From contig OY760074.1 of assembly GCA_963663035.1 (NCBI GenBank), positions 1,312,001 through 1,376,000 on the forward strand: 64,000 nt of DNA. The letters are read 5' to 3'. The stretch comes from Acidobacteriota bacterium (GTDB lineage Bacteria; Acidobacteriota; UBA6911; RPQK01; JADFOI01). Position 1 is the first letter of the stretch, and each line of letters starts with the position of its first letter. The notes under the pieces were generated by a model. That model was not told where the DNA came from. It was given only the letters and a program-made list of their open reading frames with translations, and made no database searches. Shown piece after piece: positions 2,546 through 59,075 of this stretch. Position numbers and translations under genes: made by a program.

Positions 2546-2601
2546 AAGGCCTCCCTCGTCCCAAGGAACTGGAATATTACCCATCTTATACTAGGTGACC
2601 C

Positions 2602-2640
2602 TGAGAAGCGAGGTTATGAAATGAGAAGCGAGGTTATGAA
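2602..2640. repeat. 19-bp perfect direct repeat x2 (TGAGAAGCGAGGTTATGAA), period 20, in divergent intergenic region
   Basis: Copies at 2602-2620 and 2622-2640. Confidence 0.85.
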
Positions 2641-2698
2641 TTGTTGATTGACTTGCCCTCAATAATCGTGCCGATAATAGGGTCCACAGGAGGATAGC

Positions 2699-8868: not shown

Positions 8869-9786
8869 TCAGGAGAACCGGCGTACCGCTTCGCGGGCCA
8901 GAGCAGAGAGCAGATCTCCCATCAGCACCAGAGCAGCGCCCAGAAGTACCAGGAAAAACATTTCATCGTAGTGAGTGCGTGCCCGCGCATCCTGAATCCA
9001 GTAGCCCAGGGAAACAATCCCCAGCATTCCCAGCACCGTGGCCTCCCTCACACATGTCTCCCATCGGTAAAAGAAAAAGAGAAGAAAGCGAGAGAAAGTG
9101 AGAGGGAAAAGGCCCGTGACAGCGATCTGAAGGTGGGAGGCGCCCAGGCCTCTGAGAGCGGAAAGGGGGCTGGACTCGGTGTTCTCCACCACCTCGGCTC
9201 CCAATTTTCCCAGTATGCCCACGTTGTGCAGTGCCAGAGCCAGCACTGCAGGCCATGCCGTCGGTCCCAGAACAGCCAGCAGGAGAAAGACCCAAAGATA
9301 TTCCGGTATGGCTCGCGCAAAGATGAGGAATGCACGGCTGATCCACACCAACGAGGGCCACAGAAAATCCCGGACCCGGTGGGGACTCCGCAGCGAGGAG
9401 AGAAAAGGTTCCGGCGAAGTGAAGTTCCGAGCAGCAGGAAGGGAGAAGAGGGCCCCTCCAAAGCCCGCCAGCACAATGGCGGCCACAGAGATGGCCAGGG
9501 TCATGACGGTGGCTGACCAGCCCCTCTCGGCCAAAATCTCTCCAGCCCACTGAATGGCAATTCCCACATCAAAATCTCTCCCTTGAAGCGGATAGGGGAC
9601 CAGTTCGTTCAGGAACCTGCCAAGGTTTTGCAGCCGCCGCTGGGAGAGAAAATCGTCCAAATGAAAGTCTCCCACAAACCAGGAGCCGATCATCACTGCC
9701 AGGAGTAAAAGGCCGCTCCAGTGGGCAAACCTGCTGCGGGGACGCCGGCTGCGCAGGTGCCGAAGCTTCAGCTCTCGATCCGTCAT
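8869..9786 (-). CDS. phnE: PhnE/PtxC-like ABC permease
   Basis: RAIPEY, GILGKLGAE, YRWETCVREATVLGMLG; start MTDRE overlaps upstream stop (ATGA). Confidence 0.85.
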   Translation of the reverse strand: MTDRELKLRHLRSRRPRSRFAHWSGLLLLAVMIGSWFVGDFHLDDFLSQRRLQNLGRFLNELVPYPLQGRDFDVGIAIQWAGEILAERGWSATVMTLAISVAAIVLAGFGGALFSLPAARNFTSPEPFLSSLRSPHRVRDFLWPSLVWISRAFLIFARAIPEYLWVFLLLAVLGPTAWPAVLALALHNVGILGKLGAEVVENTESSPLSALRGLGASHLQIAVTGLFPLTFSRFLLFFFYRWETCVREATVLGMLGIVSLGYWIQDARARTHYDEMFFLVLLGAALVLMGDLLSALAREAVRRFS

Positions 9787-10679
9787 GCCACGAACCTCCT
9801 TCTCAGAGCGCCACTCCACCAGTCCACCAACGTCACCAGAAGAAAAAGTGTGTACAGGTAGGTCCAGACTTCACCGTAGTGGAGATTCTCAAAAGAGGCT
9901 GAAATGTAGAAGCCCAGCGTCGGGTAACCAAAAAAGCCCAGGATTGCCGAGGAGCGAAGAGCGCACTCGAAACGGTAGAAAGCATAGGCCGTCATGTCGG
10001 GCAGGGCTCGCGGGAGGAGACCAAAAAGGTAGACCTGGGCTGCGGAAGCTCCACTTCCACGCAGGGCGTGGGCAACATCCCGTGGGGCCTCATCGATCAT
10101 TTCCGAGAAAATCTTGGCCAGTGTCCCCCCAAAAGGGATGGCGATGGCAATGGCGGCGCTCAGGTGGCTGAGTCCGAAGGCGGCCAGAAAGAGAACCGCC
10201 CAAATGAGCTCATGAATGGAACGCATAAAGGCAATCAAAACCCGCGTTCCTCCATAGACAATGGGGGCTACGCTGCGGCGCAGGAAAAGCACAGCAGGAC
10301 CCTGGCCACCCGCCGGATCACCGATCCACCAGGCAGTGGAGGCCAGAAATCCCAAAATAAGTCCCCAGACCAGGGCCAGGCTCATGGCAGCTGAAGCGAA
10401 GACAACCGTGGTAGCGGCTGCTTGAAGTGCCTTCCAGAGCAGAGGCGGGGTATCCCTGGGAACAAACTCGGCCTCATAGATGATGGCCGGGCTGAGGGCC
10501 CGACCGAAGAACTGCCAGGCTATCCGCAGTCCCCCCGGAGTGGGCACCATATCGGCCGGCTTCAGCTGCAGTTCTCTGAAAGCCCAGATTCCCGCCACCA
10601 GGATTCCCAGGATAAGAATCCTGCGCATTCCCAGGCCGTTGCGTAAAAAAGCCAGACCCACGGCTTGCCTTCTCTTCAT
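9783..10679 (-). CDS. phnE: PhnE/PtxC-like ABC permease
   Basis: RSIHELIWA, LAKIFSE, YRFECALRSSAILG. Confidence 0.85.
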   Translation of the reverse strand: MKRRQAVGLAFLRNGLGMRRILILGILVAGIWAFRELQLKPADMVPTPGGLRIAWQFFGRALSPAIIYEAEFVPRDTPPLLWKALQAAATTVVFASAAMSLALVWGLILGFLASTAWWIGDPAGGQGPAVLFLRRSVAPIVYGGTRVLIAFMRSIHELIWAVLFLAAFGLSHLSAAIAIAIPFGGTLAKIFSEMIDEAPRDVAHALRGSGASAAQVYLFGLLPRALPDMTAYAFYRFECALRSSAILGFFGYPTLGFYISASFENLHYGEVWTYLYTLFLLVTLVDWWSGALRRRFVA

Positions 10680-25570: not shown

Positions 25571-26563
25571 TTATTTTGAGGTTGCCAGCCACGTTTCCAA
25601 CCGTTTGAGTCCCTCTTCAACGCTGACACTGGGCTGGTAGCCCAATTCTTCACGGGCAGCGGCAATATTGAACCAATGACTGGTGGCTAGTTCTTCTGCC
25701 AAAAAGCGCGTGATGGGAGGCTCTCCCCTGAGCCTGAGAGTCCGGTAGAGGATCTCGCAAAACCAACCGGCCGCATAGGCGGAAGCAGGAGAAATGCTGC
25801 GACTGACAGTGGGGAGATGGGCAGCCTTTAAAATGCGATTGATGAAATCCCAAAGAGGAACCGGTTCCCCCTGTGAAATAAAAAACGCCTTCCCTGCGAT
25901 CGGTGAACCGGGCGACAGACGATCACCTGCCAGAAGGTGTGCCTGGGCAGCATTTTCTATATAGGTGAAGTCCACCAGCTTCCGAGTATGCCCAACTCTC
26001 CGCAGCCTGCCCTGACGTCCTCGGGCGATGATGCCAGGGACGAGGTGAGTATCCCCCGGCCCCCAGATCAGATGGGGGCGCAGGGCAACGGTTCCCAGCG
26101 TTTCACTGTTAGCAGCCAGAACCATCTTTTCGGCGGTGGCTTTGGTAGCTGGATAAGCTGCCTTGTAGTTCTCCGCATAGGGAACCCGCTCATCCACCCC
26201 TTCCAGATCGTGTCCGTCAAAAACCACACTCGGTGTGCTGGTATAAACCAGTCGCGGAATGCCAAGAGTTCGGCAGGCAGCAATGACATTCTCCGTTCCT
26301 GTGACATTGGTCCGGTAATAGGCCCTATCATCCCCCCAGATCCCTGCCTTGGCAGCGACATGGAATACAATCTGGCAATCCCGGCAAGCCTCCTGCACGG
26401 CTTCGGCGTCGGTAAGATCTCCTTGCAACACCTCCACTCCGAGCTTTTGAAGCTCAGGATAGCTTCCCCGCGAGAAGCTTCCAACAGCGTGTCCTTCCCT
26501 GAGCAGACGCTGGACGATGGCACCACCCAAGAAACCGCCGCCGCCAGTGACCAGTGCTTTCAT
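25571..26563 (-). CDS. oleD: OleD-like 2-alkyl-3-oxoalkanoate reductase (extended SDR/3-beta-HSD)
   Basis: TGGGGFLG, HVAAKAG, YTSTPSVVF, YPATK, RPHLIWGPGD. Confidence 0.85.
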   Translation of the reverse strand: MKALVTGGGGFLGGAIVQRLLREGHAVGSFSRGSYPELQKLGVEVLQGDLTDAEAVQEACRDCQIVFHVAAKAGIWGDDRAYYRTNVTGTENVIAACRTLGIPRLVYTSTPSVVFDGHDLEGVDERVPYAENYKAAYPATKATAEKMVLAANSETLGTVALRPHLIWGPGDTHLVPGIIARGRQGRLRRVGHTRKLVDFTYIENAAQAHLLAGDRLSPGSPIAGKAFFISQGEPVPLWDFINRILKAAHLPTVSRSISPASAYAAGWFCEILYRTLRLRGEPPITRFLAEELATSHWFNIAAAREELGYQPSVSVEEGLKRLETWLATSK

Positions 26564-28188
26564 GAGATTTTCTCAGTGGCCCACCGAGCCAGTTTTTCGC
26601 GGAAGATCTTGGCGTTGTGGCGCACATCAACCGGGAAGGAGGGGTGAAACAGCAATGTCTGGATTTCCTGGGTGTGCGGATGAGGAGCTCCCAGGTCCAG
26701 TATTTCCTGCTGGAGTTGTGGCGAGACCTTCCCCCTTTTCTGTTCTTCCTCTTCCAGTTCCACACACAGGACAGGCTTCTGCCTGGGTGGATGACCCACT
26801 CCAACCAGGGCGCTTCGATAAACCTTGGGGTGCTGATTGAAAATGCCTTCGCAGGAAACTGTAAACAGGGTTCCCTGAGGAGTGATCACCCGCTGAGACT
26901 TGCGGCCGCAGAACCAGACTTGTCCCTCCTCGTCCAGATAGCCGAGATCGCCCATGCGATGGCGGATCTCCCCATCAGGGCCCTGAATCTTGGCCAGATC
27001 ATTGGCCTCCGGCCGTCCAAAATACTCTTTCGAGACATTGGAGCCCCATACCACCAGCTCTCCGATCTCACCAGGAGACACAAGCAAGTCATCCGACCAG
27101 ATCTTGATTGGACCGTCATCGATTCCAATGAGCGACAGATGGACCCCTGGAAGGGGACCTCCAACGCACACCCCGTGACCCCGATAGGTGCTGTTCGCCT
27201 TCGACAACTCGCGGCCGGTGATTGAGCACACCGGCAAGGCCTCCGTGGCGCCGTAGGGCGTGTGGATCTCAGCACTCTCTTGCAACAGTCCGGAGAAACG
27301 GTCCAAAACCTTTGCCGCTACCGGAGCACCGGCCGATAGAACGCGCCGAAGAGAGGGCAGTTTGATGCCGTGACGCTCTCCGTAGCGGGCGACCCGGTCC
27401 AGCAAAGCCGGGGAAGCGAACATATGGGTCACGTGGTATTTTTGGATGGGAGTGATGATTTGCCGGGGATCGACTTGGGCCGGCCGGGTAAAATTCATTT
27501 CGGGAAAGACCGTGGTCATCCCCAGGGCTGGATCGAAGAGGGCAAAGAGTGGAAAAGTGGCCAGGTCGATCTCACCTGCCTCGATCTGGAAGGAATCTCG
27601 AAGAAGCGCCACCTGAGAGGCAAACATTCCATGCGTATAGACGACTCCTTTGGGAGTACCCGTGCTGCCCGAGGTAAAAACTATGGCAGCCGGATCCTCT
27701 CTCAGCGAAGGCACCGGAGCGAATCCCGGGTTGGCGCCACCCAGCTGCATCACCCGGGCAAGGGTGTATCCCCGGCAAGGCCGGAATCGCCCCACTGTAA
27801 GGCAGATTTGCACTGTCTTGCGGCCCCACCCAAAGAAGATTCGGGCCATCTGGGCCAGAGGAAGACCAATAAACGCTTCCGGCTTGGCCTCTGCCAAGCA
27901 CTTCCCCAGCTTTTGCCACCCCATGCCGGGATCGACTAAAACAAGCACCGCATTGATCTTCATGAGAGCGAAGGCCAATACCAGAAACTCGACTCCTGGA
28001 GTAACCATCATAACGGTGCGAGTACCCGGCTGAATTCCAATCTGCCGGAGGCCTTGAGCACAGCAGGTACTTCTTTCCTCCAGTTCCCCACAGGTGAGAG
28101 CGCCGCCCGGAGAGATGAGAGCCGGTTGAGAGGGTTGCTTGGCTGCCAGTTGGGAAAGATAAGCTGCAATGTTGGTAGGGCTACTCAT
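26560..28188 (-). CDS. oleC: OleC-like beta-lactone synthetase (ANL family)
   Basis: VDPGMG, FTSGSTGTPKG, TPYGATEALP, HRMGD, PVDVRHNAKIFREKL. Confidence 0.88.
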   Translation of the reverse strand: MSSPTNIAAYLSQLAAKQPSQPALISPGGALTCGELEERSTCCAQGLRQIGIQPGTRTVMMVTPGVEFLVLAFALMKINAVLVLVDPGMGWQKLGKCLAEAKPEAFIGLPLAQMARIFFGWGRKTVQICLTVGRFRPCRGYTLARVMQLGGANPGFAPVPSLREDPAAIVFTSGSTGTPKGVVYTHGMFASQVALLRDSFQIEAGEIDLATFPLFALFDPALGMTTVFPEMNFTRPAQVDPRQIITPIQKYHVTHMFASPALLDRVARYGERHGIKLPSLRRVLSAGAPVAAKVLDRFSGLLQESAEIHTPYGATEALPVCSITGRELSKANSTYRGHGVCVGGPLPGVHLSLIGIDDGPIKIWSDDLLVSPGEIGELVVWGSNVSKEYFGRPEANDLAKIQGPDGEIRHRMGDLGYLDEEGQVWFCGRKSQRVITPQGTLFTVSCEGIFNQHPKVYRSALVGVGHPPRQKPVLCVELEEEEQKRGKVSPQLQQEILDLGAPHPHTQEIQTLLFHPSFPVDVRHNAKIFREKLARWATEKIS

Positions 28189-29078
28189 GGATGCCTCACC
28201 AGAAAGTCACGAATCAGGATTCCAACGGGCTGGGGCAATGCTTCCAGGAGATAATGACCCGCCTCTGGAAATCGATGGACCTGGGCTTTCGGAAAACGTC
28301 TGATCCACTCCCTGAGAAAATCACCGTCGAAGATGAAATCCCTTTCTCCCCAGCAGATCATCATGGGAGTCTCCTGGAACCGATAGAGATTCTCCTGGGT
28401 CTCTTGCAGCAGTGTATAGGAGGGATCAGCGGAAGTCAGGGGAATGTCCTGGACAAACCGCAGCGTAGCGATCCTGTTTTGCGGAGAGTCGTAAGGGCTC
28501 CAATAAGCACGGCGAATCTCCTTCGGCATGGGAGGCCGGCAGCCCATATAGGCGGCAATGCGCGCAAAGGCGTTGAATCTCAAGATAAGAAAAGCTGCCA
28601 CTCGAGACTTCCTGCACAGGGAAAGCGACCAGTGAAGAGCTTTTCCCGGAGGCAGTAGGAATGCCGCTGTATTGAGCACGATGAGCCGCCCAATCCTGGA
28701 TGGGTGGCGGGCAGCATAGGTCATTCCGATGGCACCGCCCCAATCGTGCATGATCAACGTGATGTTGGAGTCGATTCCGATCTGATCCAGCAGTGCCTCC
28801 AGATCAGAGACCCGCTGTTGGAGTGTATACTCATACTCCTCACTGGAGGGTTTGTCAGAAAGCCCGCAACCCATGTGATCGGGCACCACCCGGCGATAGG
28901 AGTCCCCCAGAGATCGAACCAGTTCCCGATACATGAATGACCAGCTCGGGTTTCCGTGAAGCATCACCACGGGCTGGCCCTCTCCCTCGTCCAAGTAGTG
29001 ATATCGATAGCCATTACGGTTCAAGTAATGGGATTGAAAGTTGTAGAGGTGGTTGATTTGATCCACAGAAAAGCTCAT
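28185..29078 (-). CDS. oleB: OleB-like beta-lactone decarboxylase (haloalkane dehalogenase-like)
   Basis: HGNPSWS, PDHMGCGLSDKP, HDWGG, NTAAF, RFVQDIP, AGHY. Confidence 0.88.
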   Translation of the reverse strand: MSFSVDQINHLYNFQSHYLNRNGYRYHYLDEGEGQPVVMLHGNPSWSFMYRELVRSLGDSYRRVVPDHMGCGLSDKPSSEEYEYTLQQRVSDLEALLDQIGIDSNITLIMHDWGGAIGMTYAARHPSRIGRLIVLNTAAFLLPPGKALHWSLSLCRKSRVAAFLILRFNAFARIAAYMGCRPPMPKEIRRAYWSPYDSPQNRIATLRFVQDIPLTSADPSYTLLQETQENLYRFQETPMMICWGERDFIFDGDFLREWIRRFPKAQVHRFPEAGHYLLEALPQPVGILIRDFLVRHP

Positions 29079-29132
29079 CTGTGAGTCAGTCTTTGGGCAT
29101 AGAGGTGAGGGGGGCCACCTGGAACGAAGAGC

Positions 29133-30170
29133 TTAGTACTTAAAGGAGCCGACGACTGTACTCACACCAGCGCTTCCCATGAGCAAAAGCACCCTCATGC
29201 CTCGCACCAGCCTCCCTTCCGCCTCGGCCACGGCCATTGCCAGTGGGAGAGATGCCGCGACGGTGTTTCCAAACCGGGAGTGGGTTTCAAACACACGGCT
29301 CGGATCGAGATTCAATAGCTGCACCACTTTGGAAGTGGAGGCCACACTGACGGCATGGCCAATCACGATCTCATGCACTTTGCTGGCGATCGCCTGAGAT
29401 TCCTTAAAATGAGCCACCAGCTTTCTGACAGTAAAGGAGAGCAATTCCCCAGGAAGCGCGAAAAAGGACATGGGTTTGAGACCATCGCGGGCATTTAGGG
29501 GGGAAAAGTCTGCAGCATTGGGGAGAGGGATCTTGCACAGCCCGTGTTTGTCCCCCCAGGTCTTAAAGGAAAAAATGGAATCGTCTTCAGAACCATTGGA
29601 TTCCAAAAGGGTGGCCGTTGCGGCCTCGCCGATGGTGAAGGCCGAAAAAGCGGTTTCCATTTCCTTGATACTCTTGAACTCAAAGTTGGCGTATTCCCTG
29701 AAGCTGAATTCACAGTTCAAAATCATGACCAGCTTATAGGCCTTCTGGGCCAGGAAACTCTTGGCGATGGCCAGGCTTCGAATCCAGCTGGCACAGGCAT
29801 CCAAGACATCAAAACAGGTGGCGGATTTCAGTCCCAATTCACTTTGGAACAGGTTGGCGGTGGCCGGTTCCATCCATCCCCTGGCCACCCCGGCATAGAT
29901 GAGAAGATCCACATCCTCTGGATCGACCCCAGCCTTGTCGAGAGCTGCTTTGCCGGCTTTCACGGCGAAATCCACAGCTCTTTCTCCAATTCCCCGGTGG
30001 TAGCGGGTCACGGTTCCAGACATCTTGAAAAACTGCTTCATCCGCTCGGTGATGCGTTCCAGTTCTTCGGGAGAAAGGTGATCGCGGTTCTTTTCGATGA
30101 TCTCCTCAATCAATTTCTCGTTGGAGACCAACTTGCTGGGGAGAGCGTAGGAGATACTGAGAATTCTCAT
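29133..30170 (-). CDS. oleA: OleA-like/KAS III thiolase-fold condensing enzyme
   Basis: EPATA, FDVLDAC (Cys), HAVS (His), GNT (Asn); first gene of A-B-C-D cluster. Confidence 0.7.
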   Translation of the reverse strand: MRILSISYALPSKLVSNEKLIEEIIEKNRDHLSPEELERITERMKQFFKMSGTVTRYHRGIGERAVDFAVKAGKAALDKAGVDPEDVDLLIYAGVARGWMEPATANLFQSELGLKSATCFDVLDACASWIRSLAIAKSFLAQKAYKLVMILNCEFSFREYANFEFKSIKEMETAFSAFTIGEAATATLLESNGSEDDSIFSFKTWGDKHGLCKIPLPNAADFSPLNARDGLKPMSFFALPGELLSFTVRKLVAHFKESQAIASKVHEIVIGHAVSVASTSKVVQLLNLDPSRVFETHSRFGNTVAASLPLAMAVAEAEGRLVRGMRVLLLMGSAGVSTVVGSFKY

Positions 30171-30330
30171 TTTCTGTTTTTTGACTGTGCTTTTGCCTGG
30201 GGCATTTCCGCCACTGCAAAAGTACTCGCTCAGCTTGACCTTGTCAATAGGTCACAACTGAGACCATGCTGTATACTATCACGCCTTACTGTTAAATCAG
30301 GGGTAAAGATTTTCTCAAGGAGGAGGCAGA

Positions 30331-32880
30331 ATGAAAGACCGTTCTTTGGAACAATCCAACATCGATATCATTTCTCTCGATTTGGGAAGTTTCGTGAGCG
30401 GGGAGTTACCGGCTCAGATCATAGAGGTGGCCCGTCAAGCTCTTGACGGGAAGATCAGGGAAGGACAACTACGAGGAGGAGTCGTCTACGGATTTGGTCG
30501 AGATCTCCATATCCACGTGTCTACCTACAACGGAGACTTCCCGCCGGGTGATTCCCAGAACGGGGACCCTCTCACGGCAGTTGTCCAAACGGCCTTGGCG
30601 GCCGGCCTGGAAGCCCTGAAGGAAGCCCAGCAAATGGGCCTGGGTTCCCCTGAGGCAGAGAAAATTTCCAGCCTCCCTCCCCCAGAGCAGGCAGCAGCGC
30701 TGAACCTTCGCCGCCTGAATTACTCTTACACCGAAAGGGGTGCGGAGCCCATCTTCGTAGCCAAGGCGATCAATGGGAGCTGGGGCTTTTTTAACCGGGC
30801 CTTCTTTAACCTCTTTTTCAATCCCGACAAAGGCTCGGGACGCCGAATCGAAGGAAATGACTTTCTGGGCGTAGTTGAGTCGATCGAAGATCTGGAGAAT
30901 AACAAGCCCCAAGTGCGGACCTTCGAGTTTGGACCAGGCTATGTCAATGAAATGGTCGCTCTCATCGCCGATGCAGAGGAGTGGCGTCTGAGCCGCGTTT
31001 ATGCAGTACGGGGGAAATTCGGAGAAGGCAAGCTGTCGGATGAACCTGCTGCCGTCGTGGAGGGCAGTGTGGACCCGGTGTTCATTGGCCGATCTCAGTC
31101 CGGGCTCCCCGCTATTGGCGAATTCACACAGTCAGCGGGTGAGTTCTTCTTCGCTCCGGGTGGCGACGGCGGGCAGTACCGGGTGGGGCTCATGCCCGCT
31201 GATTTCCAAGAGGCAAGGACCATCACCTCCCTGCCCGGATCGGCGCGAGTGGTGGCCTACGCCTATCAATCCTATGACCATGGCCGCATTCCGGCGGAAG
31301 AGGATGTCGTGGATGTGTTTTCCCAAAACAGAGCGGAGACCTCCCGTGTGCAGCGGGATGCCGCAAGGTTGATCGAGCAGATGGTGAGCCATGAGAGGTT
31401 TGAACCTTACCTGAATCCCAAAGCGGCTGAGGAGTGTGCTGTCCAGGAGCTGGGCCGTCTGAAGGGTCGTTTTGAAGTCATTCCCGATGTGGACCCGCTC
31501 ATGGAAGCAGCCAACCAAAAGGCCCTCTTTACCCTGTCCGATATCAAGGCCGATAGTGGGGGCAAGGTTGGGCACACGACCCCTCCCAATCACTTCCGCG
31601 GAGTGGCTGAAGCCAGCCTGCAGGAGGCCAGAAAGCTGGGACTCATCCATGGCACCTCAGAACTCATCGAGGTTGGAGATGACGGTCACCTCCTGATGAG
31701 CCACGGGAAAGGAGCCGACAACAACGAGATCCATCTTTTCGCCTACCGCACCTTTTTCCGACAGGTCTGGGTGGCTGAGATTTTGAACTACAAGTGGTAC
31801 GGGCTGGGGCAGGACCTGGTGGGCGATGCGTCGGCCGGACGGACGACGGAAGAACTCGCCAATCTGACCGATGAGTTCATGGAGCTTCTGGAGGATACCC
31901 TGCCACCTGCGGAACTGAAGCAAATGGACCTCTTGAAAAAGGCCTACGGCGAATGGAAAAGCGGCGAGGGGCAAGGCCACAAGCCTCTTGAAGTTTTCTC
32001 CGGAAACGTGTCTGGACAGGGTCCTGGTTTTGCGGAGCTCCCCCTGATGGGCGCGGGTCAGATAGGGCTGCTGGCTATGGATAAAACGGGTCCATCCTCC
32101 TTTAATCTTCCCGTCTGGTGGAGCCTCAATCGAGCCCTGGGCGACACCACTCTGAAGACCTATTTGGAGAGAACGGGAGGCCAGGGAGTGGTCATCGAGA
32201 TCTGGGACGTGGAACACCACGAAAGGGTTTTTCTGGACGTGGAGACGGAAGCGCAGAGTATCGAAGAACTCCTGGGAGCTATTGAGAGATTTAATGTCAA
32301 GCGCATCTGGAGCAGAACGGCTGAAAAATGGGATCCAGGACGTGTTGGAGCATCTCTGGGAGAAGTCTTGCTGGCGGCCTCAACCGAAAAGCTGGCCGTC
32401 ATCACAGGCGGAGAGTATCGGGGCAAGGATGACCCCGTGCTGTTGGCCGTGGAGCCACTTGCTCAGGCGCTGAACCTCTTTATGCGGGACCGCTACTACC
32501 TGACTCAGGGAGACGGTCGGGGTTCCCACTACATGTTCCCGACACCACTGGCGTTCCAGGATGCAATTGCCACTATCAATAGCCGGGCCGTGGCCGTGGC
32601 AGCCTGCATCACAATTGACTCTTCTGGCGAGATCAGAGGTTTCCGCGACGTCTTCGCCGATCCCAGTTATGAGGCAGCGCGAGACCGCGCTTATGAGCTC
32701 AACAAGGCCATCTGGGACGCCCAAGGCGGCAACTTTATCCCGGTCGGGGTGGGAACCGCCAAGGTCGAGCAGTCCTATCCTCTGGCTCAGACTCTGAACC
32801 GAATCACTGCCGCTGATTCTGAGTTTGTTTCAAAGCGGACCCTTTCTCACGCTGCGCCTGAAGAACTCGTGGGAACGTAA
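30331..32880 (+). CDS. tandem-duplicated fructose-1,6-bisphosphate aldolase/phosphatase (FBPase class V)
   Basis: C-half: IKADSGG..GH, GDD, YGLGQDL, FSGNVSGQGPG, DKT, YRGKDDP, RGSHY; N-half is a degenerate copy (ERGAEPI, DPVFIGRSQSGLPAIGE). Confidence 0.8.
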   Translation: MKDRSLEQSNIDIISLDLGSFVSGELPAQIIEVARQALDGKIREGQLRGGVVYGFGRDLHIHVSTYNGDFPPGDSQNGDPLTAVVQTALAAGLEALKEAQQMGLGSPEAEKISSLPPPEQAAALNLRRLNYSYTERGAEPIFVAKAINGSWGFFNRAFFNLFFNPDKGSGRRIEGNDFLGVVESIEDLENNKPQVRTFEFGPGYVNEMVALIADAEEWRLSRVYAVRGKFGEGKLSDEPAAVVEGSVDPVFIGRSQSGLPAIGEFTQSAGEFFFAPGGDGGQYRVGLMPADFQEARTITSLPGSARVVAYAYQSYDHGRIPAEEDVVDVFSQNRAETSRVQRDAARLIEQMVSHERFEPYLNPKAAEECAVQELGRLKGRFEVIPDVDPLMEAANQKALFTLSDIKADSGGKVGHTTPPNHFRGVAEASLQEARKLGLIHGTSELIEVGDDGHLLMSHGKGADNNEIHLFAYRTFFRQVWVAEILNYKWYGLGQDLVGDASAGRTTEELANLTDEFMELLEDTLPPAELKQMDLLKKAYGEWKSGEGQGHKPLEVFSGNVSGQGPGFAELPLMGAGQIGLLAMDKTGPSSFNLPVWWSLNRALGDTTLKTYLERTGGQGVVIEIWDVEHHERVFLDVETEAQSIEELLGAIERFNVKRIWSRTAEKWDPGRVGASLGEVLLAASTEKLAVITGGEYRGKDDPVLLAVEPLAQALNLFMRDRYYLTQGDGRGSHYMFPTPLAFQDAIATINSRAVAVAACITIDSSGEIRGFRDVFADPSYEAARDRAYELNKAIWDAQGGNFIPVGVGTAKVEQSYPLAQTLNRITAADSEFVSKRTLSHAAPEELVGT

Positions 32881-32905
32881 CATCGTTACCCAGGAGAAGA
32901 ATCTT

Positions 32906-35653
32906 ATGAATACGGCCACTGACCTCAGCCGCTCCGACGCCCTCAAATATGTCTATCTTTTCAACCAGGTTGATGAGGTGGAAAAAAAAGTAGGTGGCGA
33001 CTGGGAGAAAGTGCGCTCTCTGCTGGGTGGTAAGGGTGCAGGCCTGGCAGATATGACCCGACTGGGCGTTTCGGTCTGCCCGGGTTTTACCGTCACCACG
33101 GAGGCGTGCACCCTCTATCTGTCTGGAAACGGGTTCCCCAAGGAAGTATGGGAGCAAGAACTGGCAGCTGTGGGGGCCATTGAGGAGGCCACCGGAAAAA
33201 AGTTTGGCGACCCCAGCAACCCGCTGCTGGTTTCCTGTCGCTCAGGTGCCAAGTTCTCCATGCCGGGAATGATGGATACTGTGCTCAACATTGGCTTGAA
33301 CGATGAGGTCGCGGAAAAGTGGGTGGAGCGAGGGGCTGACGCGCGTTTCGTCTATGACTCCTATCGAAGGTTGGTTCAAATGTTCGGCAGCGTGGTGTTG
33401 GACGTTCCCGACGAGTATTTCGAAGCCGTTATCACCGAGTGCCGAAAAGGCGCTGGAGTCACTAGCGACTCCGAACTTTCAGCTCAGAATTGGGGAGATG
33501 CAATCAAAGAGTTCAAGGAGATTGTGAAGAGCTCCACAGGAAATGACTTCCCCACTGACCCCTATCAACAACTGAAGCTGGCAACAGAAGCGGTCTTTCG
33601 GTCCTGGGACGGGAAGCGGGCCATTGCCTATCGCAAGGCAGCTGGCATTCCACATGATCTGGGTACAGCCGTCAATATCCAGACCATGGTCTTTGGCAAC
33701 ATGGGTGAGGACAGCGCCACAGGTGTGGCCATGTCACGCAACGCCTCCAACGGAGAACCCGAGCTTGAAGGGGATTTTCTGATCAACGCACAGGGGGAAG
33801 ACGTAGTGGCAGGTATTCGTCACACCCAGCCCCTGAGCGACCTCAAAAAGCAGATGCCGGAGATGTATGCCGAATTTGAGGAGATCACCCGGAAACTGGA
33901 GAAGCACTACCGCAACATGCAGGATATGGAGTTCACCATTGAAAATCAAAAATTGTGGATTCTGCAGACGCGGGATGGAAAGCGCACCGCCCAGGCCGAG
34001 GTGCGTATCGCGGTGGACATGGTCGAGGAAGGACTCATCAGCAGGAAAGAGGCGGTAGGGCGGGTCCAGCCGGCCCAGGTAGACATCTTCATGCACCCGC
34101 AGTTTGACGCCGCTACCCGTCAAAAGGGCCAGCTCATCGCGCGGGGTCTGAACGTCTCCCCGGGAGCAGCAGTGGGTGTCGTCGCCTTTGACGCCGATAC
34201 AGCCGAAGATTGGGCTGCGAACAAGGGAAAAGATGTCATAATGGTTCGGCCCGAGACCAAACCCGACGATGTGCATGGCATGCTGGCCTCCAAAGGCATT
34301 CTCACCAGCCGAGGCGGCCGTACCAGCCACGCTGCGCTGGTTGCGCGGCAGTTCGGCACACCGGCCGTGGTGGGTGTCAGCGAGTTGGAGATCGATCTTG
34401 ACGCTCGCCAAATGCGCATCGGCGATGAACTCGTGGTGAAAGAGGGAGAGTGGATTTCACTGGACGGGGGCTCAGGCGAAGTTTTCCTGGACAAATTACC
34501 CACCGTTGTTCCCGACTTCAGCAATCCTTATCTCCTGAAAATTCTCGAATGGGCGGATGAAATTCGCACCCTCCAGGTCTGGACCAACGCCGATTACCCT
34601 GGTGACGCCGAGCGAGCTCGTGAATACGGTGCCCAGGGTATCGGTTTGTGTCGAACCGAGCACATGTTCTTCGAGACCAGCCGCCTGCCCATTGTTCAGC
34701 GCATGATCATGGCCACGGACCCGGCCGAGAGACAGGAAGCTATTGACAAGCTGCTGCCGATGCAGCGAGAGGATTTCGAAGGCCTGTTCAAGGCCATGGA
34801 CGGAGCTCCGGTGGTTATCCGACTGCTGGATCCGCCGCTGCACGAATTTTTGCCCTCCTATGAGGAGTTGGTTCAAGACCTGGCGGAGTTGAAGGCTCAG
34901 GTCAAGTACCTGAAGAGCGGCAGCGAGAAGGACAATGCCCTCTCTGAAATTCAGAGTAAATCCGCCTACCTGGAGAGGGTGCAGGCGCTCCGAGAAATGA
35001 ATCCGATGCTGGGTACACGCGGAGTCCGCCTGGGCATCCTCATTCCCGAGCTGACCAAAATGCAGGTTCGAGCCATCTTTGAAGCTGCTTGCAAATGTTC
35101 CCAGGCGGGGATCAAGGTCCAACCGGAAGTCATGATTCCCCTGACCTCTCACGTAAACGAACTGCGGGTCCAGCAAACGGGACTGGAAAGCGTGGCCAAA
35201 GAGGTCATGGCAGAACAAGGCGCCCAAATCCAATACAAGTTCGGCACCATGATCGAGATCCCGCGAGCCGCACTCACGGCCGATGAGATGGCCGAGGTCG
35301 CTGAGTTTTTCTCCTTTGGTACCAATGACCTGACTCAGACTGTTTTTGGCATCTCCCGTGATGATGCCGAGTCCGGCTTCCTGGTGCACTACATCCAGGA
35401 AGGGATTCTGCCCGAGAACCCATTTGCCACCCTGGATGTCGGGGGTGTCGGAAAGTTAATGGAGATGGCCGTCCAGCTGGGTCGAAAGATCAAGCCTGAA
35501 CTGGAGATTGGTATCTGCGGTGAGCATGGTGGAGATCCGGCAAGCATCGCCTTGTGCCACCGGCTTGGTTTTAATTACGTCTCCTGTTCGCCCTTTCGGG
35601 TCCCCATTGCCCGCCTGGCAGCCGCCCACGCCGCACTTGCGGACAAAGAGTGA
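32906..35653 (+). CDS. ppdK: pyruvate phosphate dikinase
   Basis: LLGGKGAGL, SMPGMMDT, GGRTSHAA (phospho-His), GLCRTEHMF, SFGTNDLTQ, GICGEHGG; AGGAG before ATG 32906. Confidence 0.97.
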   Translation: MNTATDLSRSDALKYVYLFNQVDEVEKKVGGDWEKVRSLLGGKGAGLADMTRLGVSVCPGFTVTTEACTLYLSGNGFPKEVWEQELAAVGAIEEATGKKFGDPSNPLLVSCRSGAKFSMPGMMDTVLNIGLNDEVAEKWVERGADARFVYDSYRRLVQMFGSVVLDVPDEYFEAVITECRKGAGVTSDSELSAQNWGDAIKEFKEIVKSSTGNDFPTDPYQQLKLATEAVFRSWDGKRAIAYRKAAGIPHDLGTAVNIQTMVFGNMGEDSATGVAMSRNASNGEPELEGDFLINAQGEDVVAGIRHTQPLSDLKKQMPEMYAEFEEITRKLEKHYRNMQDMEFTIENQKLWILQTRDGKRTAQAEVRIAVDMVEEGLISRKEAVGRVQPAQVDIFMHPQFDAATRQKGQLIARGLNVSPGAAVGVVAFDADTAEDWAANKGKDVIMVRPETKPDDVHGMLASKGILTSRGGRTSHAALVARQFGTPAVVGVSELEIDLDARQMRIGDELVVKEGEWISLDGGSGEVFLDKLPTVVPDFSNPYLLKILEWADEIRTLQVWTNADYPGDAERAREYGAQGIGLCRTEHMFFETSRLPIVQRMIMATDPAERQEAIDKLLPMQREDFEGLFKAMDGAPVVIRLLDPPLHEFLPSYEELVQDLAELKAQVKYLKSGSEKDNALSEIQSKSAYLERVQALREMNPMLGTRGVRLGILIPELTKMQVRAIFEAACKCSQAGIKVQPEVMIPLTSHVNELRVQQTGLESVAKEVMAEQGAQIQYKFGTMIEIPRAALTADEMAEVAEFFSFGTNDLTQTVFGISRDDAESGFLVHYIQEGILPENPFATLDVGGVGKLMEMAVQLGRKIKPELEIGICGEHGGDPASIALCHRLGFNYVSCSPFRVPIARLAAAHAALADKE

Positions 35654-50617: not shown

Positions 50618-51997
50618 GAGGTTCCGTCAATAAGTGTGTAAATAGACATCAGGCGGCTTTCTCCTGGGTGACTGGGTTGACTGGAACTCCATTGACATAT
50701 TGGGCTCCTTGGTAGACATCCTTCATCAAGTGGGGAGCCTTCAAACGGCGAAATCTCTTCTCAGCGACCAGCAGCATCTTCCAGATGACAGCCCGTGCGT
50801 TGGCCACTTTCTTGAACCTTCGAGCAGCATCGGTTCGCAGTCGCAGAGCAGAGAAGGGAGACTCCACTGGGTTGGTAGTCCGCAGATGTTGCCACTGCTG
50901 TTTGGGATAGTTGTAAAACGTCACCATCCGCTCCCAGTCCTGGTCGATCAGATCAGCCGCTGCCTCCAGGCCTCTCTTGCTACACCAATGTTGGAATCGT
51001 CCTTTGACTCGCTCGGCTTCCTGCCGTGTTTCTGCATAAGGGATCTGCCGCAACATCAACAAGGCCGCTTTGTGCCGACTCTTGGGGATCTTGGCCAGCA
51101 AGTTGACGATGCGATGATTCCAGCATCTCTGCTCGTCGGCTTCTGGGAACACGTTGCGCAACGCTCCCCAGATCCCCAGATGCCCGTCAGCGATCACCAG
51201 ACGGGGTGGGTTCATCCCCCGCTCTTTGAGATCCCGCAGCACTTCGGACCAGCTCTGGGTCGATTCTCGATAACCACTACTGACGGACACCACCACTTTA
51301 GTGCCATCACTTAAAGCGGCGATCACTACCAGAATCACGGCCTTCTCCTTCTCCAGCCCTGCTTTGATGTACACGCCGTCCGCCCACAAATACACGACTT
51401 CCAGATCATCCAGCCGACGGCTCTGCCAGGCCTCCATTTCTCCCTGCCACTTCTGTTTCAACCGGGCTACGGTGCTGGGGGACAGCGGCGCTTCTTCCCC
51501 TAAAAGCCCTCTCAAGGCCAGATCGAAATCCCCCTCGGCCAGACCATGTAAATAGAGTTCTGGAATCAAGTCTCGTACCTCTCGCGTTCGCTTGGCAAAC
51601 AGCGGCAAGACCCGGCTCTCAAAACGCTCTTCCAGATCCCGCACTCGGGGACGCCGCAGCTTGATCGTTCCGCAACTCATCGTCAGTCGCCGCTCCTTGC
51701 CGTAGCCGTTGCGATAGCCACCGGAGGCGTCCACTTCTCGGCGACGCTCATTCTTTCTTCGTCCCAGCAGCTGTGTCACTTCATCCTCCAGCAGTTCCTG
51801 TACGTAAAACTGGATCTGCTCTCGCACCCACTCTTCCAGCTGTTCAAAGCAGACTCTTGACTCCACACTGTGATCAATGTTCTTCTTGCTCATGGCGGTG
51901 TGACTCCTTCCTTTCGGGCTCTTCCGCCCGGGTTTTTATTTTCACCCGGAAGGATAATCACCGCCTGTGCTATTTACACACCTTTTGAGGGTAGCTC
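50618..51997 (-). mobile_element. IS256-family insertion sequence, 1380 bp, 28-bp imperfect TIRs, 9-bp TSD GGATCTTCG
   Basis: TIRs GAGGTTCCGTCAATAAGTGTGTAAATAG / CTATTTACACACCTTTTGAGGGTAGCTC; TSD at 50609-50617 and 51998-52006. Confidence 0.95.
50649..51893 (-). CDS. IS256 family transposase
   Basis: YRNGY, PRVR, LWADG, IADG, QRCWNH, RTTNPVES. Confidence 0.96.
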   Translation of the reverse strand: MSKKNIDHSVESRVCFEQLEEWVREQIQFYVQELLEDEVTQLLGRRKNERRREVDASGGYRNGYGKERRLTMSCGTIKLRRPRVRDLEERFESRVLPLFAKRTREVRDLIPELYLHGLAEGDFDLALRGLLGEEAPLSPSTVARLKQKWQGEMEAWQSRRLDDLEVVYLWADGVYIKAGLEKEKAVILVVIAALSDGTKVVVSVSSGYRESTQSWSEVLRDLKERGMNPPRLVIADGHLGIWGALRNVFPEADEQRCWNHRIVNLLAKIPKSRHKAALLMLRQIPYAETRQEAERVKGRFQHWCSKRGLEAAADLIDQDWERMVTFYNYPKQQWQHLRTTNPVESPFSALRLRTDAARRFKKVANARAVIWKMLLVAEKRFRRLKAPHLMKDVYQGAQYVNGVPVNPVTQEKAA

Positions 51998-52954: not shown

Positions 52955-54670
52955 TTAGAAGGCTCCGGAGGCCTCGTAAACGATCTTTCCTCCGACCACG
53001 GTCATCAGCACTGGCATAGTACCGATTTCCTCCTCCGGCCAGGTCATGTAATCGCCTCCGAGTACCACCAGGTCGCCCAGTTTACCCGGCTCAATCGAGC
53101 CCAGGATATTCTGCTCGCCACTGTAGCGGGCCGCCCACAGCGTATACATATAGAGAGCCTCCTGCCGGGAAACGCGCTCCGCAGGATTCCAGATTCGTCC
53201 GTCTTCCGATTTTCGAGTGATGAATCTCTGGATCGAATCCAGTCCTCCTCCGATCTCGATGCTGGGCCTGATCCCGGCATCGATTGCTGACTTGACTGGA
53301 GACATGCCATAGACGGCGTCGGGGCCGTACATGGTAACCAGGCCCGCATTATTCCCGGAAAAAGCCCCGGCATCCATCGACGTATTCATATCCATTTCTT
53401 TGATCAAGTCAAAGTGGCGTTCCGTCAGCCCCTTCTGATGGTCGAATCCAAAGTGGCGCCCAACCAGAGATTTTTCCTGATGGGCTTCGGCGAAAACGTC
53501 CAGCAGCAGATCGTTGCTGGCATCTCCTTCGCTGTGAAGACCCATGATGCTCCAACCATAGCGATTGGCCAGGATGATGGCTCGTCGATCACTGGTGGCC
53601 ACGTTTCCGGTGGACTCCCACTTGTTCCACCCGTAAGGACCATAGGGGTCACCTTCAGCCATCTGGATTTTCGCGAAGGTGAACAACCCTGAACCCGTAC
53701 CTGTGGACCCGTCTACCACCTGCACGGTCGCTCCGATAATCTTCATCCAGTCGTCTCCAAAGTCTGTCAGGTTTCCGATCCGCTTCAGGAACGCTTCGGG
53801 TCGTGCCTGGGAGCGCAGGAACTCATGGGCCAGTCTGACGCGCACAGGAAGTTCCCCCGCCTTCCACAGCTCCAGCAGGATGGAGATGGTCTCACCTTGT
53901 CCTCTTCCCATGAGGGTGGTGATCCCGCGCGGCCCGTGGCGTTTCAGGGCTTCACGTTCTCTGGCGACTGCCCCCTCAAAATCGTCTTGCCCGGGCTTGA
54001 ACTCATAGATCACTATTCCGGCCGGACCACCTCTTATCTGACCCGTGTAGTTTCCCTGCTCATCTTTGAGAATGCCATCCAATCCCTGCGCCACTGGAAG
54101 TAGTTTCTTCAGCATCTGGCTGTTGATGATGACCTGATTGTTGGGACAGCTGATGGAGATCGGGTTGTTGGGAGAAGCGGCATCCAACTCCGCCAGCGTC
54201 ACCTCTATCGTCAGGTATTTGTTGCTGGGTCCCGCCATGTAGATTTCCTCGCCCGGAGGAAGCTCAGCCACCGCAGCCTTGATCTCTTCCAGCCCGCTGG
54301 CCACGTCTTCGAACTGCAACCTAACAGTTCCACTCTTTGAAGCATTGCCGATGTAGCCGTGCTGGTGGGTGGCGATCAGCCCCGGGATGATACCTCGACC
54401 CTCAAGATCGACTCTTCTCGTCTGTGGACCCGCCATGGCCTGGATGGCCTGGCTTTCCCCCACGGCCAGAAACTTCCCGTCTCGGATCGCTACCGCTTCT
54501 CGTATGGAAAAATCCTCGTCGGCGGTAATGACCTGGCCGTTGTAAAATATAATGTCCGCGTACTCGATGACCTCCGACGGCAGGCTCTGGGCGGCCAGAA
54601 ATGCGCTGCAGATCCCCAGCATCAAGCAGGCCAGAAAACCCATTTGAAACTTCTTAATCCACTGGTTCAT
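52955..54670 (-). CDS. secreted amidohydrolase 3 paralog 1
   Basis: PGLIATHQH, HSEGD, FDHQ, GSIEPGKLGDLVVL. Confidence 0.88.
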   Translation of the reverse strand: MNQWIKKFQMGFLACLMLGICSAFLAAQSLPSEVIEYADIIFYNGQVITADEDFSIREAVAIRDGKFLAVGESQAIQAMAGPQTRRVDLEGRGIIPGLIATHQHGYIGNASKSGTVRLQFEDVASGLEEIKAAVAELPPGEEIYMAGPSNKYLTIEVTLAELDAASPNNPISISCPNNQVIINSQMLKKLLPVAQGLDGILKDEQGNYTGQIRGGPAGIVIYEFKPGQDDFEGAVAREREALKRHGPRGITTLMGRGQGETISILLELWKAGELPVRVRLAHEFLRSQARPEAFLKRIGNLTDFGDDWMKIIGATVQVVDGSTGTGSGLFTFAKIQMAEGDPYGPYGWNKWESTGNVATSDRRAIILANRYGWSIMGLHSEGDASNDLLLDVFAEAHQEKSLVGRHFGFDHQKGLTERHFDLIKEMDMNTSMDAGAFSGNNAGLVTMYGPDAVYGMSPVKSAIDAGIRPSIEIGGGLDSIQRFITRKSEDGRIWNPAERVSRQEALYMYTLWAARYSGEQNILGSIEPGKLGDLVVLGGDYMTWPEEEIGTMPVLMTVVGGKIVYEASGAF

Positions 54671-55013
54671 TGTAAACCTCCTGTTTTTTGGTTGACTGTG
54701 ATTCCCGGCAAATCCTGAGTTGTTCCCGTATTGAGCGCTTTAGGAGCTGCGCTGTAAGGAAGAATATAAGGGAAGATGAGAACAGTCAACACAATTCACC
54801 ATGGATACTGGTCTGCTCCGATTTTCATCTAGTTGCACTCTATGAAACTATACTTTCGTATAGCAACTAATGAGCTTCTCAAATAATGCGGGTTGGGAAT
54901 TGAAAAGAAGGGACAGTCCCCGAATGCCTTCAATGCCCCCCCGGATCGACACGGACACCAATCCGCGCCGATCCGTGAGGAGACAGAAGAGCTGTCCGGA
55001 GTTCACGAAGATC

Positions 55014-56729
55014 TTAGAAGGCTCCGGAGGCCTCGTAAACGATCTTTCCTCCGACCACGGTCATATGCACTGGCAAAGCGCTGAGTTCATCCTCCGGCCA
55101 GGTCATATAATCGGCTCCGAGTACCACCACGTCGCCCAGTTTACCCACCTCAATCGAGCCCAGGATATCCTGCTCGCCACTGTAGCGGGCCGACCACTGC
55201 GTGTACATATAGAGCGCCTCCTGCTTGGAGACCCGCTCGTCCGCATTCCAGACTCGGCCGTCATCCGTCTTTCGAGTGATGAAGGCCTGGAGCGATTCCA
55301 TTCCATCTCCGATCTCGATGCTGGGCTTGATCCCGGCATCGATAGCTGACTTGACTGGAGACATGTTATATACGGCGTCTGGGCCGTACATGTGAACGAT
55401 GCTCGAATTATCCCCGGAGAAAGGACTTGCATACATAATCGGAGTTATCCCCATCTCCTTGATCAGGTCAAAGTGGCGTTCCCGCAGCCCTGCCTGATGG
55501 TCGAATCCAAAGTGGCGGCCAGCCAGCGATCTTTCCTGATGGGCTTCGGAGAAAGCGTCCAGCAGCACATCGTCGCTGGCATCTCCCGCGCTGTGAAGGC
55601 CCAGGATGCTCCAACCATAGCGGTTGGCCAGGATGATGTTTCGCCGATCACTGGTGGCGATGTCTTCGGTTGCCGCCCATTTGTTCCATCCGTAAGGACC
55701 ATAGGCGTCACCTTCAGCCAGGTTGAGTTTCGCGAAGGTTTGCAAATTTGCACCCGGACCTCCGGACCCGTCTACCACCTGCACGGTAGCTCCGATGATC
55801 TTCAGCCAATCGTCTCCAAAGTCTGTCAGGTTTCCGACCCGCTTCAGGTACGCTTCGGGGCGTGGCTGAGAGCGCAGCATCTCGTGGGCCAGTCTGATGC
55901 GCACAGGAAGTGCCTTCTCCTTCCAGATCTCCCGCAGGATGGTGACAGTCTGACCTTGCCCTCTTCCCATCACGGTGGTGATCCCGCGCGGGCCCCAGCG
56001 CTTCAGTTGTTCCCTTTCTCTGTCGATCGCGGCCTCAAAATCTTCGTGCCAGGGCATGAACTCATAGAGCACGATTCCGGCCGGACCACCTCTTAGCTGA
56101 CCCGTGTAGTTTCCCTGCTCATCCTTGAGAATGCCAAACATCCCCTGCGCCTCTGGAAGGAGTCTGTTCAGCATCAGGCTGTTGACAACAACCTGATTGT
56201 TGGGACAGGTGACCACCAGCGGGTTGTTTGGGGAAGCGGCATCCAGCTGTGCCAGCGTCACATCTATGGTCATGGCGTGGTTGCTGGGTCCCCCCGACCA
56301 GATCTCCTCACCCGGAGCATATTTGGCCACCAGAGCCTTGATTTCCTCCAGACCGCTGGCCACGTCCTTGAACTGCAGCCTCTCGGTCCCGCTCTTTGAA
56401 GAATTGCCCACGTAGCCGTGTTGGTGGGTGGCAATCAGCCCGGGGATGAGGCTTCGACCGTCAAGATCCACTTTTCTCGTCTGTGGACCCGCCATGGCCT
56501 CGATGGCCCGGCTGTCCCCAACGGCCAGAAACTTTCCGTCCCGGATGGCTACAGCTTCTCGTATGGAAAAACCCTCGTCGACGGTAAGGACCTTGCCGTT
56601 GTAAAACACGATGTCCGCATAGTGGATGACCTCCGACGGCAGGCTCTGTGCGACCAGAAATCCGCTACAGATCCCCAGCATCAAGCAGGCCAGAACACCC
56701 ATTTGAAACTTCTTAATCCACTGGTTCAT
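55014..56729 (-). CDS. secreted amidohydrolase 3 paralog 2
   Basis: Same motifs; AGGAGG before ATG 56729. Confidence 0.88.
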   Translation of the reverse strand: MNQWIKKFQMGVLACLMLGICSGFLVAQSLPSEVIHYADIVFYNGKVLTVDEGFSIREAVAIRDGKFLAVGDSRAIEAMAGPQTRKVDLDGRSLIPGLIATHQHGYVGNSSKSGTERLQFKDVASGLEEIKALVAKYAPGEEIWSGGPSNHAMTIDVTLAQLDAASPNNPLVVTCPNNQVVVNSLMLNRLLPEAQGMFGILKDEQGNYTGQLRGGPAGIVLYEFMPWHEDFEAAIDREREQLKRWGPRGITTVMGRGQGQTVTILREIWKEKALPVRIRLAHEMLRSQPRPEAYLKRVGNLTDFGDDWLKIIGATVQVVDGSGGPGANLQTFAKLNLAEGDAYGPYGWNKWAATEDIATSDRRNIILANRYGWSILGLHSAGDASDDVLLDAFSEAHQERSLAGRHFGFDHQAGLRERHFDLIKEMGITPIMYASPFSGDNSSIVHMYGPDAVYNMSPVKSAIDAGIKPSIEIGDGMESLQAFITRKTDDGRVWNADERVSKQEALYMYTQWSARYSGEQDILGSIEVGKLGDVVVLGADYMTWPEDELSALPVHMTVVGGKIVYEASGAF

Positions 56730-56844
56730 TGGAAACCTCCTGTTTTTTGTTAACTGTGATTCCCGGCAAATTCTGAGCACTCCGGGCGAAGAAAACACCC
56801 TCGTTGACTACGCCTCCCGAGTTGTCCCCGAATTCACGAAGATT

Positions 56845-58560: not shown

Positions 58561-58722
58561 TGGAAACCTCCTGTTTTTGTTGACTGTTCATTCGCTCTCC
58601 ACCTCTTGCGCAACAAGAGGGTGTGACAAATCGTTGCATAGAGCCTACCATTTAGCTTTCAGAATGCAAAGATAAGATTTAGCAAATTCCTATTGAAGTC
58701 CTGCCCTCAGATCCTGTCACAG

Positions 58723-58911
58723 ATGCATGCACATCCGGCAAGCGTGGGGGTTTTCCTGACGGACCTTAATGGCCGGTTCACCTATCCAGATGGCAGCTCG
58801 GAGGAAATTCAAGCCAAAGCCGATGACGCTGCCTGGTTCGATGCAGTAGAACACCTCCCGGAAAGTTTGAGCGATCAACCGCTAGAGATTCTCCTTATCG
58901 AGCTGAAGTAA
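58723..58911 (+). pseudogene. C-terminal remnant of a small cupin protein
   Basis: MHAHP..V.VFLTD...RFTYPDG..EE..KA...W..A.EH..E...QPLE.LLIELK; N-terminal part absent. Confidence 0.55.
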
Positions 58912-59029
58912 GGCTTGAGTGTCTCGTCCCGCATTATCCGGGCTAGACGCCTGATTGATGCGCCTCACCGACGAAGCGTGGCAAATCCTGGAAAAACCGG
59001 AGTAGCTGCCATAGGGAGATATTTGATTC

Positions 59030-59059
59030 TTGACATAAATATTACAAACTTGTAATAAT
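59030..59059 (+). promoter_or_regulatory. sigma70-like promoter with overlapping palindromic operator
   Basis: TTGACA at 59030; TATTACAA-AC-TTGTAATA at 59040-59057; TAATAAT -10-like. Confidence 0.65.
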
Positions 59060-59075
59060 ACTTTAGGTGGTTAAT

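Follow-up and report, generated by a model that had tools for sequence, protein, structure and literature searches.

Introduction

The class V aldolase/phosphatase of fructose 1,6-bisphosphate (FBP), here FBPA/P, is regarded as an ancestral gluconeogenic enzyme; its solved examples are single-domain proteins, and the canonical enzyme is a ring-shaped homo-octamer. An open reading frame (ORF) of 849 aa in a 64,000-nucleotide stretch of Acidobacteriota DNA (contig OY760074.1; the whole stretch is referred to as the window) consists of two class V FBPA/P domains, and the question raised by this locus is what the N-terminal copy does. In a preliminary description of the locus the N-half was considered a dead domain with a structural or allosteric role, or a scaffold for pyruvate phosphate dikinase (PPDK). 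According to the analysis presented here, the protein is more probably a covalently joined pseudo-dimer whose halves together form a single composite active site, with a putative FBPA/P activity, a reading to which a probability of about 0.68 is assigned.

Domain composition of the 849-aa protein

The positions of the gene and of its main parts are as follows.

30331..32880, + strand: tandem class V FBP aldolase/phosphatase, 849 aa (ORF translation, Pfam, model)
30352..31485, + strand: N-half, residues 8-385, with the FBPA/P fold and without catalytic residues of its own, the proposed partner-subunit half
31486..31521, + strand: short linker between the domains, in which residues 389-397 are predicted to be helical (full-length model)
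31522..32838, + strand: C-half, residues 398-836, the catalytic FBPA/P domain (residue conservation, 1UMG match)
31828..31992, + strand: insert of about 55 aa, mainly helical, between GQDL and FSGN (model, spacing counts)

The ORF was confirmed and the two-copy protein proved to be real, as both domains were matched separately. The FBPase_3 profile of Pfam gave two matches, at residues 12-365 (E 8e-18) and in the C-half (E 1e-55), and a profile built from 36 N-halves matched residues 3-364 of ST0318 of Sulfolobus tokodaii with an E value of 9e-21. In structure prediction each half folded like PDB 1UMG, so the likeness to class V FBPase is present in both halves. The N-half modelled alone was aligned with 1UMG over 324 residues (Z 32.5, root-mean-square deviation 3.1), and the next match among 48,161 chains had a Z of 9.0; the corresponding values of the C-half, taken from the full-length model, were 347 residues, Z 38.1 and 2.7. 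The full-length AlphaFold2 model had a predicted local distance difference test score (pLDDT) of 85.2 and a predicted template modelling score of 0.84. With 849 aa and two domains the protein lies outside the single-domain range of about 360-410 aa, the solved chains being 362-407 aa long.

The direct comparison of the N- and C-half gave almost no signal (BLASTP E 0.013; hhalign probability 0.4%), and their identities to a single-domain reference were 25% and 28%. The halves are barely alike and the duplication is therefore old.

All the motifs named in the preliminary description were found in the translation: SLDLGS (15-20), GRD (56-58) and EGSVDP (244-249) in the N-half, and KAD (406-408), GH (414-415), GDD (449-451), GQDL (493-496), DKT (584-586) and YRGKDDP (696-702) in the C-half. 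The residue counts given below were determined with 121 close homologues and 45 modules of long proteins, i.e. 166 of each half; ST0318 residue numbers, written with three-letter names, were counted from alignments. The insertion before FSGN, previously estimated as about 50 aa, was 55 aa by the Gln95-to-Gly104 spacing. This spacing was 64 in 112 of the 121 close homologues versus 9 in three of the four single-domain references, and an insert of at least 47 aa was present in 44 of the 45 long-protein modules. No Pfam family was matched by the insert.

Catalytic residues of the C-half

In class V FBPA/P, Mg is liganded by Asp12, His19, Asp53, Asp54, Gln95, Asp132, Asp233 and Asp234, the Schiff base is formed by Lys232 with Tyr229, and Asp287 and Glu347 have active-site roles. 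The Schiff-base loop of the window protein lies in the C-half.

32416..32436, + strand: Schiff-base loop Y696-R-G-K699-D-D-P; the stretch after it lacks R-x-Q-[H/S]-G

All the Mg ligands were found in the C-half, each in 121/121 close homologues, together with the equivalents of Lys10, Tyr91, Lys133, Tyr229 and Lys232; in the C-modules of long proteins these positions were retained in 44-45 of 45. In the numbering of the window protein, D408, H415, D450, D451, Y490, Q494, D584, K585, Y696, K699, D700, D701, R730 and Y816 were each invariant in the close C-halves. The Schiff-base pair K699 and Y696 was present in 166/166. Y816, paired by eye with the canonical MEYT motif as the equivalent of Tyr348, was retained in 121/121 close homologues and 43/45 long-protein C-modules.

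The degeneration of the C-half itself had been overlooked in the preliminary description. R-x-Q after KDD was found in none of the 166 C-halves (0/121 close, 0/45 long), a pattern met by two of the four single-domain references, and the Asp234-to-Gly267 spacing of the close family was 30 versus 33, i.e. three residues shorter. The ERxxEP motif is not retained in the C-half, and the F-x-x-P segment around Pro150 is not retained in the C-halves of the close family.

The N-half and the partner loop

The N-half has the opposite pattern: what is lost from the C-half is kept here. Two features carry the retained segments.

30733..30840, + strand: E135-R136-x-x-E139-P140 and F154-N155...F163-N-P165-D-K-G-S-G, segments retained in the N-half
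31090..31122, + strand: loop R254-S-Q256-S257-G-L-P-A-I-G-E264, equivalent to Gln242-His243 of ST0318 (alignment to 3R1M and 3T2B)

The Schiff-base motif was missing from 121/121 close N-halves, and among the Mg-ligand positions only that of Asp54 was well kept (120/121). The loop R-x-Q-[H/S]-G-L-P-A-x-G-E was detected at the canonical spacing of 28 in 121/121 close and 42/45 long N-halves. Q256 was invariant (121/121 and 45/45, together 166/166), as were R136 and N155 (166/166); G258 was found in 164/166, and P165 in 121/121 close homologues and 23/45 long-protein modules. The Gln242-His/Ser243 loop is thus present in the N-half only, whereas in the canonical enzyme it shares a domain with the catalytic residues. 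The same split was found in the 45 long modules, where the catalytic positions were retained in 43-45 of 45 C parts and Gln242 in 45/45 N parts. When solved FBPA/P structures were compared, residues 1-238 were best matched by the C-half and residues 228-365 by the N-half. The segments lost by the C-half are those kept by the N-half, and therefore the N-half most likely completes the active site of the C-half.

The N-half is under purifying selection. The ratios of non-synonymous to synonymous substitution rates (dN/dS), determined with 13 pairs of close loci, were 0.08-0.35 (median 0.14) for the N-half and 0.07-0.16 (median 0.09) for the C-half; the N-half value was the greater one in 12 of the 13 pairs. 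Among the 121 sequences 64 of 362 N-half positions were invariant. The view of the N-half as dead is thus supported in two respects, the missing catalytic residues and a structural role, and probably fails as regards a merely dead domain, since exactly the loop missing from the C-half is retained in it.

A purely structural or allosteric N-half, which stabilises or oligomerises a complete C-half or binds an effector in its decayed site and makes no contact with the substrate, is quite unlikely. Such a role would fit the invariant polar positions of the close family that are without a canonical counterpart, namely H62 (121/121), H60 (118), K145 (120), D58 (120) and D166, K167, R172 and E174 (121 each). 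All of these vary in the 45 long-protein modules, unlike Q256, which is constant there, and the exact correspondence between the loop kept in the N-half and the one missing from the C-half also speaks against it. An allosteric role could possibly coexist with the pseudo-dimer. The D58/H60/H62/K145 set (residues 58-145, window positions 30502-30765) may be a remnant or a new ligand pocket.

Modelling of the halves together

The loop and the tail of the N-half gained order beside the C-half, in favour of the pseudo-dimer. The pLDDT values of the block 251-280, which contains the loop, were 82-90 in the full-length model versus 75-78 for the N-half alone, and those of the N-half tail (block 351-390) were 74-92 versus 52-78; the alignment depths differed as well, 100 versus 36. 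Segment 161-180 is invariant, yet it was of low confidence in both models, as for a surface from which a ligand or a further protomer is missing, which again would suit a structural or allosteric N-half. Co-folded as separate chains, the two halves scored 0.55, while none of three controls scored above 0.00; the runs agreed in at least 83% of the contacts and the partner pLDDT was at least 84. For comparison, 116 of 157 solved complexes passed the mark applied in co-folding, and so did 2 of 215 mismatches. The support for the pseudo-dimer is weak, as scores at or below 0.60 passed for only 18 of the 157 solved complexes and for both passing mismatches, and the likeness to a solved homo-oligomer may account for the pass.

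Proposed mechanism and the evidence against it

The active site of the canonical octamer presumably lies between two subunits, with Gln242/His243 provided by the neighbour and Pro150 shaping that interface. In the pseudo-dimer the N-half would pack on the C-half across the equivalent of this subunit interface and donate the R-x-Q-S-G-L-P loop, whereas the C-half would supply the metal ligands, the Schiff base and the phosphate pocket. The C-half would bind Mg, condense dihydroxyacetone phosphate with glyceraldehyde 3-phosphate via K699 and Y696, and hydrolyse the 1-phosphate, with fructose 6-phosphate as the product. The second, mirror-image site would have decayed in both halves. As far as conserved residues can tell, the protein probably works like the canonical enzyme while failing several features of the canonical family. 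The fold and the likely reaction are already known (PMC12965863). No account of a double class V enzyme or of Gln242/His243 was found in the literature covered, most subscription journals being outside that coverage.

Several points weigh against the composite site. The reading depends on the presumed part played across the subunit interface by Gln242/His243 and Pro150. The alignments contained only four single-domain references, two of them without the Schiff-base residues. The Arg266 equivalent, invariant in the close C-halves (121/121), was retained in only 16/45 long-protein modules. The scores with the NCBIfam equivalog NF041126 were 237.5 bits for the whole protein, 181.2 for the C-half and 62.3 for the N-half, below the cut-off of 520 bits. 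In the C-half an invariant Ser takes the place of each of two acidic residues of the canonical enzyme (S751 for Asp287, S815 for Glu347; 121/121), which may mean that one activity or the substrate has been altered. A homologue about 39% identical to ST0318 has no FBP activity (PMC8740755).

The last three points are also the ones that favour the same pseudo-dimer with an altered chemistry, i.e. phosphatase only, aldolase only, or an enzyme with a different substrate, for example sedoheptulose 1,7-bisphosphate or a phosphoprotein. The 55-aa insert lies beside Gln95, the substrate of the published homologue is a phosphoprotein, not FBP (same source), and outside one clade no recurring sugar-metabolism gene was seen among the 73 neighbouring proteins scanned (from 96 candidates). 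Altered chemistry is nevertheless unlikely: the equivalents of Tyr229, Lys232, all Mg ligands, Tyr91, Gly104, Asn105, Arg266 and Tyr348 were found in 119-121 of the 121 close homologues, the longer relatives bear TIM, GAPDH, PGK, PGM, PGI, transaldolase or PEPCK domains, and ppdK adjoins the gene in the window.

Distribution of the stand-alone family

A search at near-equal length resulted in 206 proteins, and the best 120 of them were all 783-875 aa long and at least 59% identical. Their database name is plain fructose 1,6-bisphosphatase. Among 40 loci from species-representative genomes, 26 belonged to Acidobacteriota/Acidobacteria, four to Poribacteria, three to Gemmataceae, two to Latescibacterota, and one each to Nitrospinota, Aminicenantes, Dehalococcoidia, Anaerolineae and an unnamed bacterium. 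The loci closest to the window are from Acidobacteriota. The patchy distribution suggests horizontal transfer.

The start motif of the C-half was found in 39 of the 40 loci, 38 of which had at least 396 open codons ahead of it; the exceptions were L036, cut by the start of its contig, and L040, a fragment. A mis-assembly or a decaying relic is ruled out by the family size, the conservation and the dN/dS values. In one locus (L030, about 9785-9970) frame changes interrupt the C-half, owing to a sequencing error or to a pseudogene. A search among shorter proteins for split or N-only forms gave 81 matches, but for many of these the contig was short or no contig information was given. No match was obtained in plasmids, searched with a single-domain query, or in phages.

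Long relatives

With the N-half as a query, 108 matches were obtained among cluster representatives, and a further four came from the search among longer proteins. An N-like domain was followed by a C-like domain in all 53 examined proteins of at least 700 aa. The linker, estimated from profile ends, was 15-24 aa in 37 of the 53 modules; a single outlier had about 970 aa. The 45 modules used for the residue counts were those left after exclusion of linkers above 60 aa, N parts below 330 aa and C parts below 380 aa.

Extra enzyme domains were detected in 8 of 28 matches scanned with Pfam, namely TIM, GAPDH, PGK, PGM, transaldolase, PEPCK and alanine dehydrogenase, and PGI was found with NCBIfam in one further long relative. 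By a simple charge-and-hydrophobicity rule, signal-peptide-like starts were present in 43 of the 53 long proteins versus 0/121 stand-alone ones. Many of the long proteins (P0127-P0307) share a short tail (SA in 9, AA in 6, GV in 5 of 53), possibly a common export or anchoring signal. One of the closest long relatives, P0124 (3495 aa, 44% identity), contains two complete N+C modules at about 1280-2127 and 2192-3021.

In two quick trees, one of 62 rows and the other of 32 of those rows, the stand-alone clade was nested among the long-protein modules. In the approximately unbiased test, a clade of 18 long modules remained acceptable (p 0.081, with long branches present); P0126, of 894 aa and effectively stand-alone, was counted as long in this test and P0196 was outside the tested group. 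The latter (1205 aa) has a C-module with Asp287 and without the long insert and clusters with the single-domain references in both trees; it is possibly an early branch or an independent duplication.

A tentative scenario, more doubtful than the pseudo-dimer itself, can be drawn for the direction of evolution. The module may have arisen in exported multi-enzyme proteins as a means of building the octameric shared-site enzyme in one chain, which would make it the first oligomerisation-independent FBPA/P. One copy might then have lost the signal peptide and the flanking parts and spread across at least six bacterial phyla as a cytoplasmic gluconeogenic gene, and the long relatives would be single-chain extracellular sugar-phosphate pathways.

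Comparison with known systems

Both halves share the fold of class V FBPA/P (ST0318, PDB 1UMG/3R1M; Thermoproteus neutrophilus, PDB 3T2B-G; PF01950; NF041126), and the C-half has the same Mg ligands, Schiff-base Lys/Tyr and Tyr348. The window protein differs in having two diverged domains per chain, with the catalytic residues and the partner loop on separate halves, as well as the 55-aa insert and Ser at the positions of Asp287 and Glu347.

Fused pseudo-dimers with one working site are known from mammalian adenylyl cyclase C1/C2, eukaryotic phosphofructokinase and hexokinase I. In these, too, an oligomeric enzyme was duplicated in tandem and the halves became unequal; the families are unrelated, and the analogy is one of principle only. 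CinF of Coxiella burnetii is another FBPA/P homologue with an altered function; as described in PMC8740755, it is a single 382-aa domain acting as a host-directed protein phosphatase, and no sign of such a role was seen in the window protein. The same paper describes the position of Tyr347 in ST0318 as important for both activities.

The giant proteins of Omnitrophota (Archaeovorins) have regions predicted to be extracellular that bear FBPase, TIM, PGI, PGM/PMM, aldolase and PPDK domains (bioRxiv 10.1101/2023.11.21.568195). Several of the long relatives likewise bear TIM, PGI or PGM, a likeness by domain content only, and most of the long relatives have signal-peptide-like starts. A tandem or degenerate FBPase pair is not mentioned in the accessible text of that preprint, where 'tandem' occurs 0 times; its supplements with domain tables could show repeats. 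Archaeovorins exceed 30,000 aa, whereas the long relatives are 716-4971 aa. The window protein is stand-alone and has neither a signal peptide nor a membrane helix by simple hydrophobicity rules, which gave no hydrophobic segment, and it does not belong to the giant membrane-associated proteins.

The separation of the cis and partner halves within a single chain would allow each half to be mutated separately, which is impossible in a homo-oligomer, and would reveal the purpose of the oligomer. The generic database name hides the tandem architecture, and a stand-alone gene found in Acidobacteriota, Poribacteria and other bacteria becomes linked to puzzling long proteins that bear several enzymes and are apparently exported. 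The 849-aa form would be a tractable proxy for whether the enzyme domains of the long proteins work.

Gene neighbourhood

The following features flank the gene at its two ends.

30317..30326, + strand: Shine-Dalgarno-like AAGGAGGAGG, with the ATG 4 nt further on (read off the sequence)
32906..35653, + strand: ppdK, pyruvate phosphate dikinase, 915 aa, with its own AGGAG at 32892-32896

The ribosome-binding site of the 849-aa gene is strong. The ATG of ppdK is 25 bp past the stop codon, as previously described, and its product scored 1237 bits with TIGR01828 (cut-off 843). No terminator-like site was found in the 25-bp gap and the promoter scan resulted in 0 sites; the two genes are probably co-transcribed in the window. 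In this Acidobacteriota lineage both ends of gluconeogenesis would then probably be expressed together, a physical contact between the enzymes being unneeded.

A general gluconeogenic operon was not supported. Eight of the 40 loci stop no more than 21 bp from the match and give no information on ppdK; ppdK was directly downstream in 8 of the 32 informative loci, and no match was found in the other 24. All eight positive loci are from Acidobacteriota and have the gene order of the window, the divergent thiolase-like (oleA-like) gene included. This unrelated upstream gene was in the same place in 10 of the 40 loci and is thus linked as often as ppdK.

That the N-half scaffolds PPDK within a conserved gluconeogenic operon is very improbable. 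The short distance in the window and the eight related loci are what such a scaffold would predict, but the N-half is equally conserved in the 24 loci without a ppdK match, the positive loci have their entire local gene order in common, the module occurs also inside unrelated long proteins, and the two enzymes do not catalyse consecutive steps of the pathway. With ppdK not being a conserved partner across the family, the scaffold proposed earlier is unsupported and, as a conserved-operon explanation, is ruled out by the gene neighbourhoods.

Four genes at 25571-30170 (- strand), divergent from the FBPA/P gene, encode proteins with thiolase/acyl carrier protein synthase III, alpha/beta hydrolase, AMP-binding and 3-beta-HSD domains, a set which resembles the oleABCD cluster of olefin synthesis. 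Elsewhere in the window, four Amidohydro_3 genes are clustered at 52955-61819 (- strand) and a fifth is located near the window start at 4906-6687 (- strand). A Mutator-family transposase gene was found at 50649-51893 (- strand).

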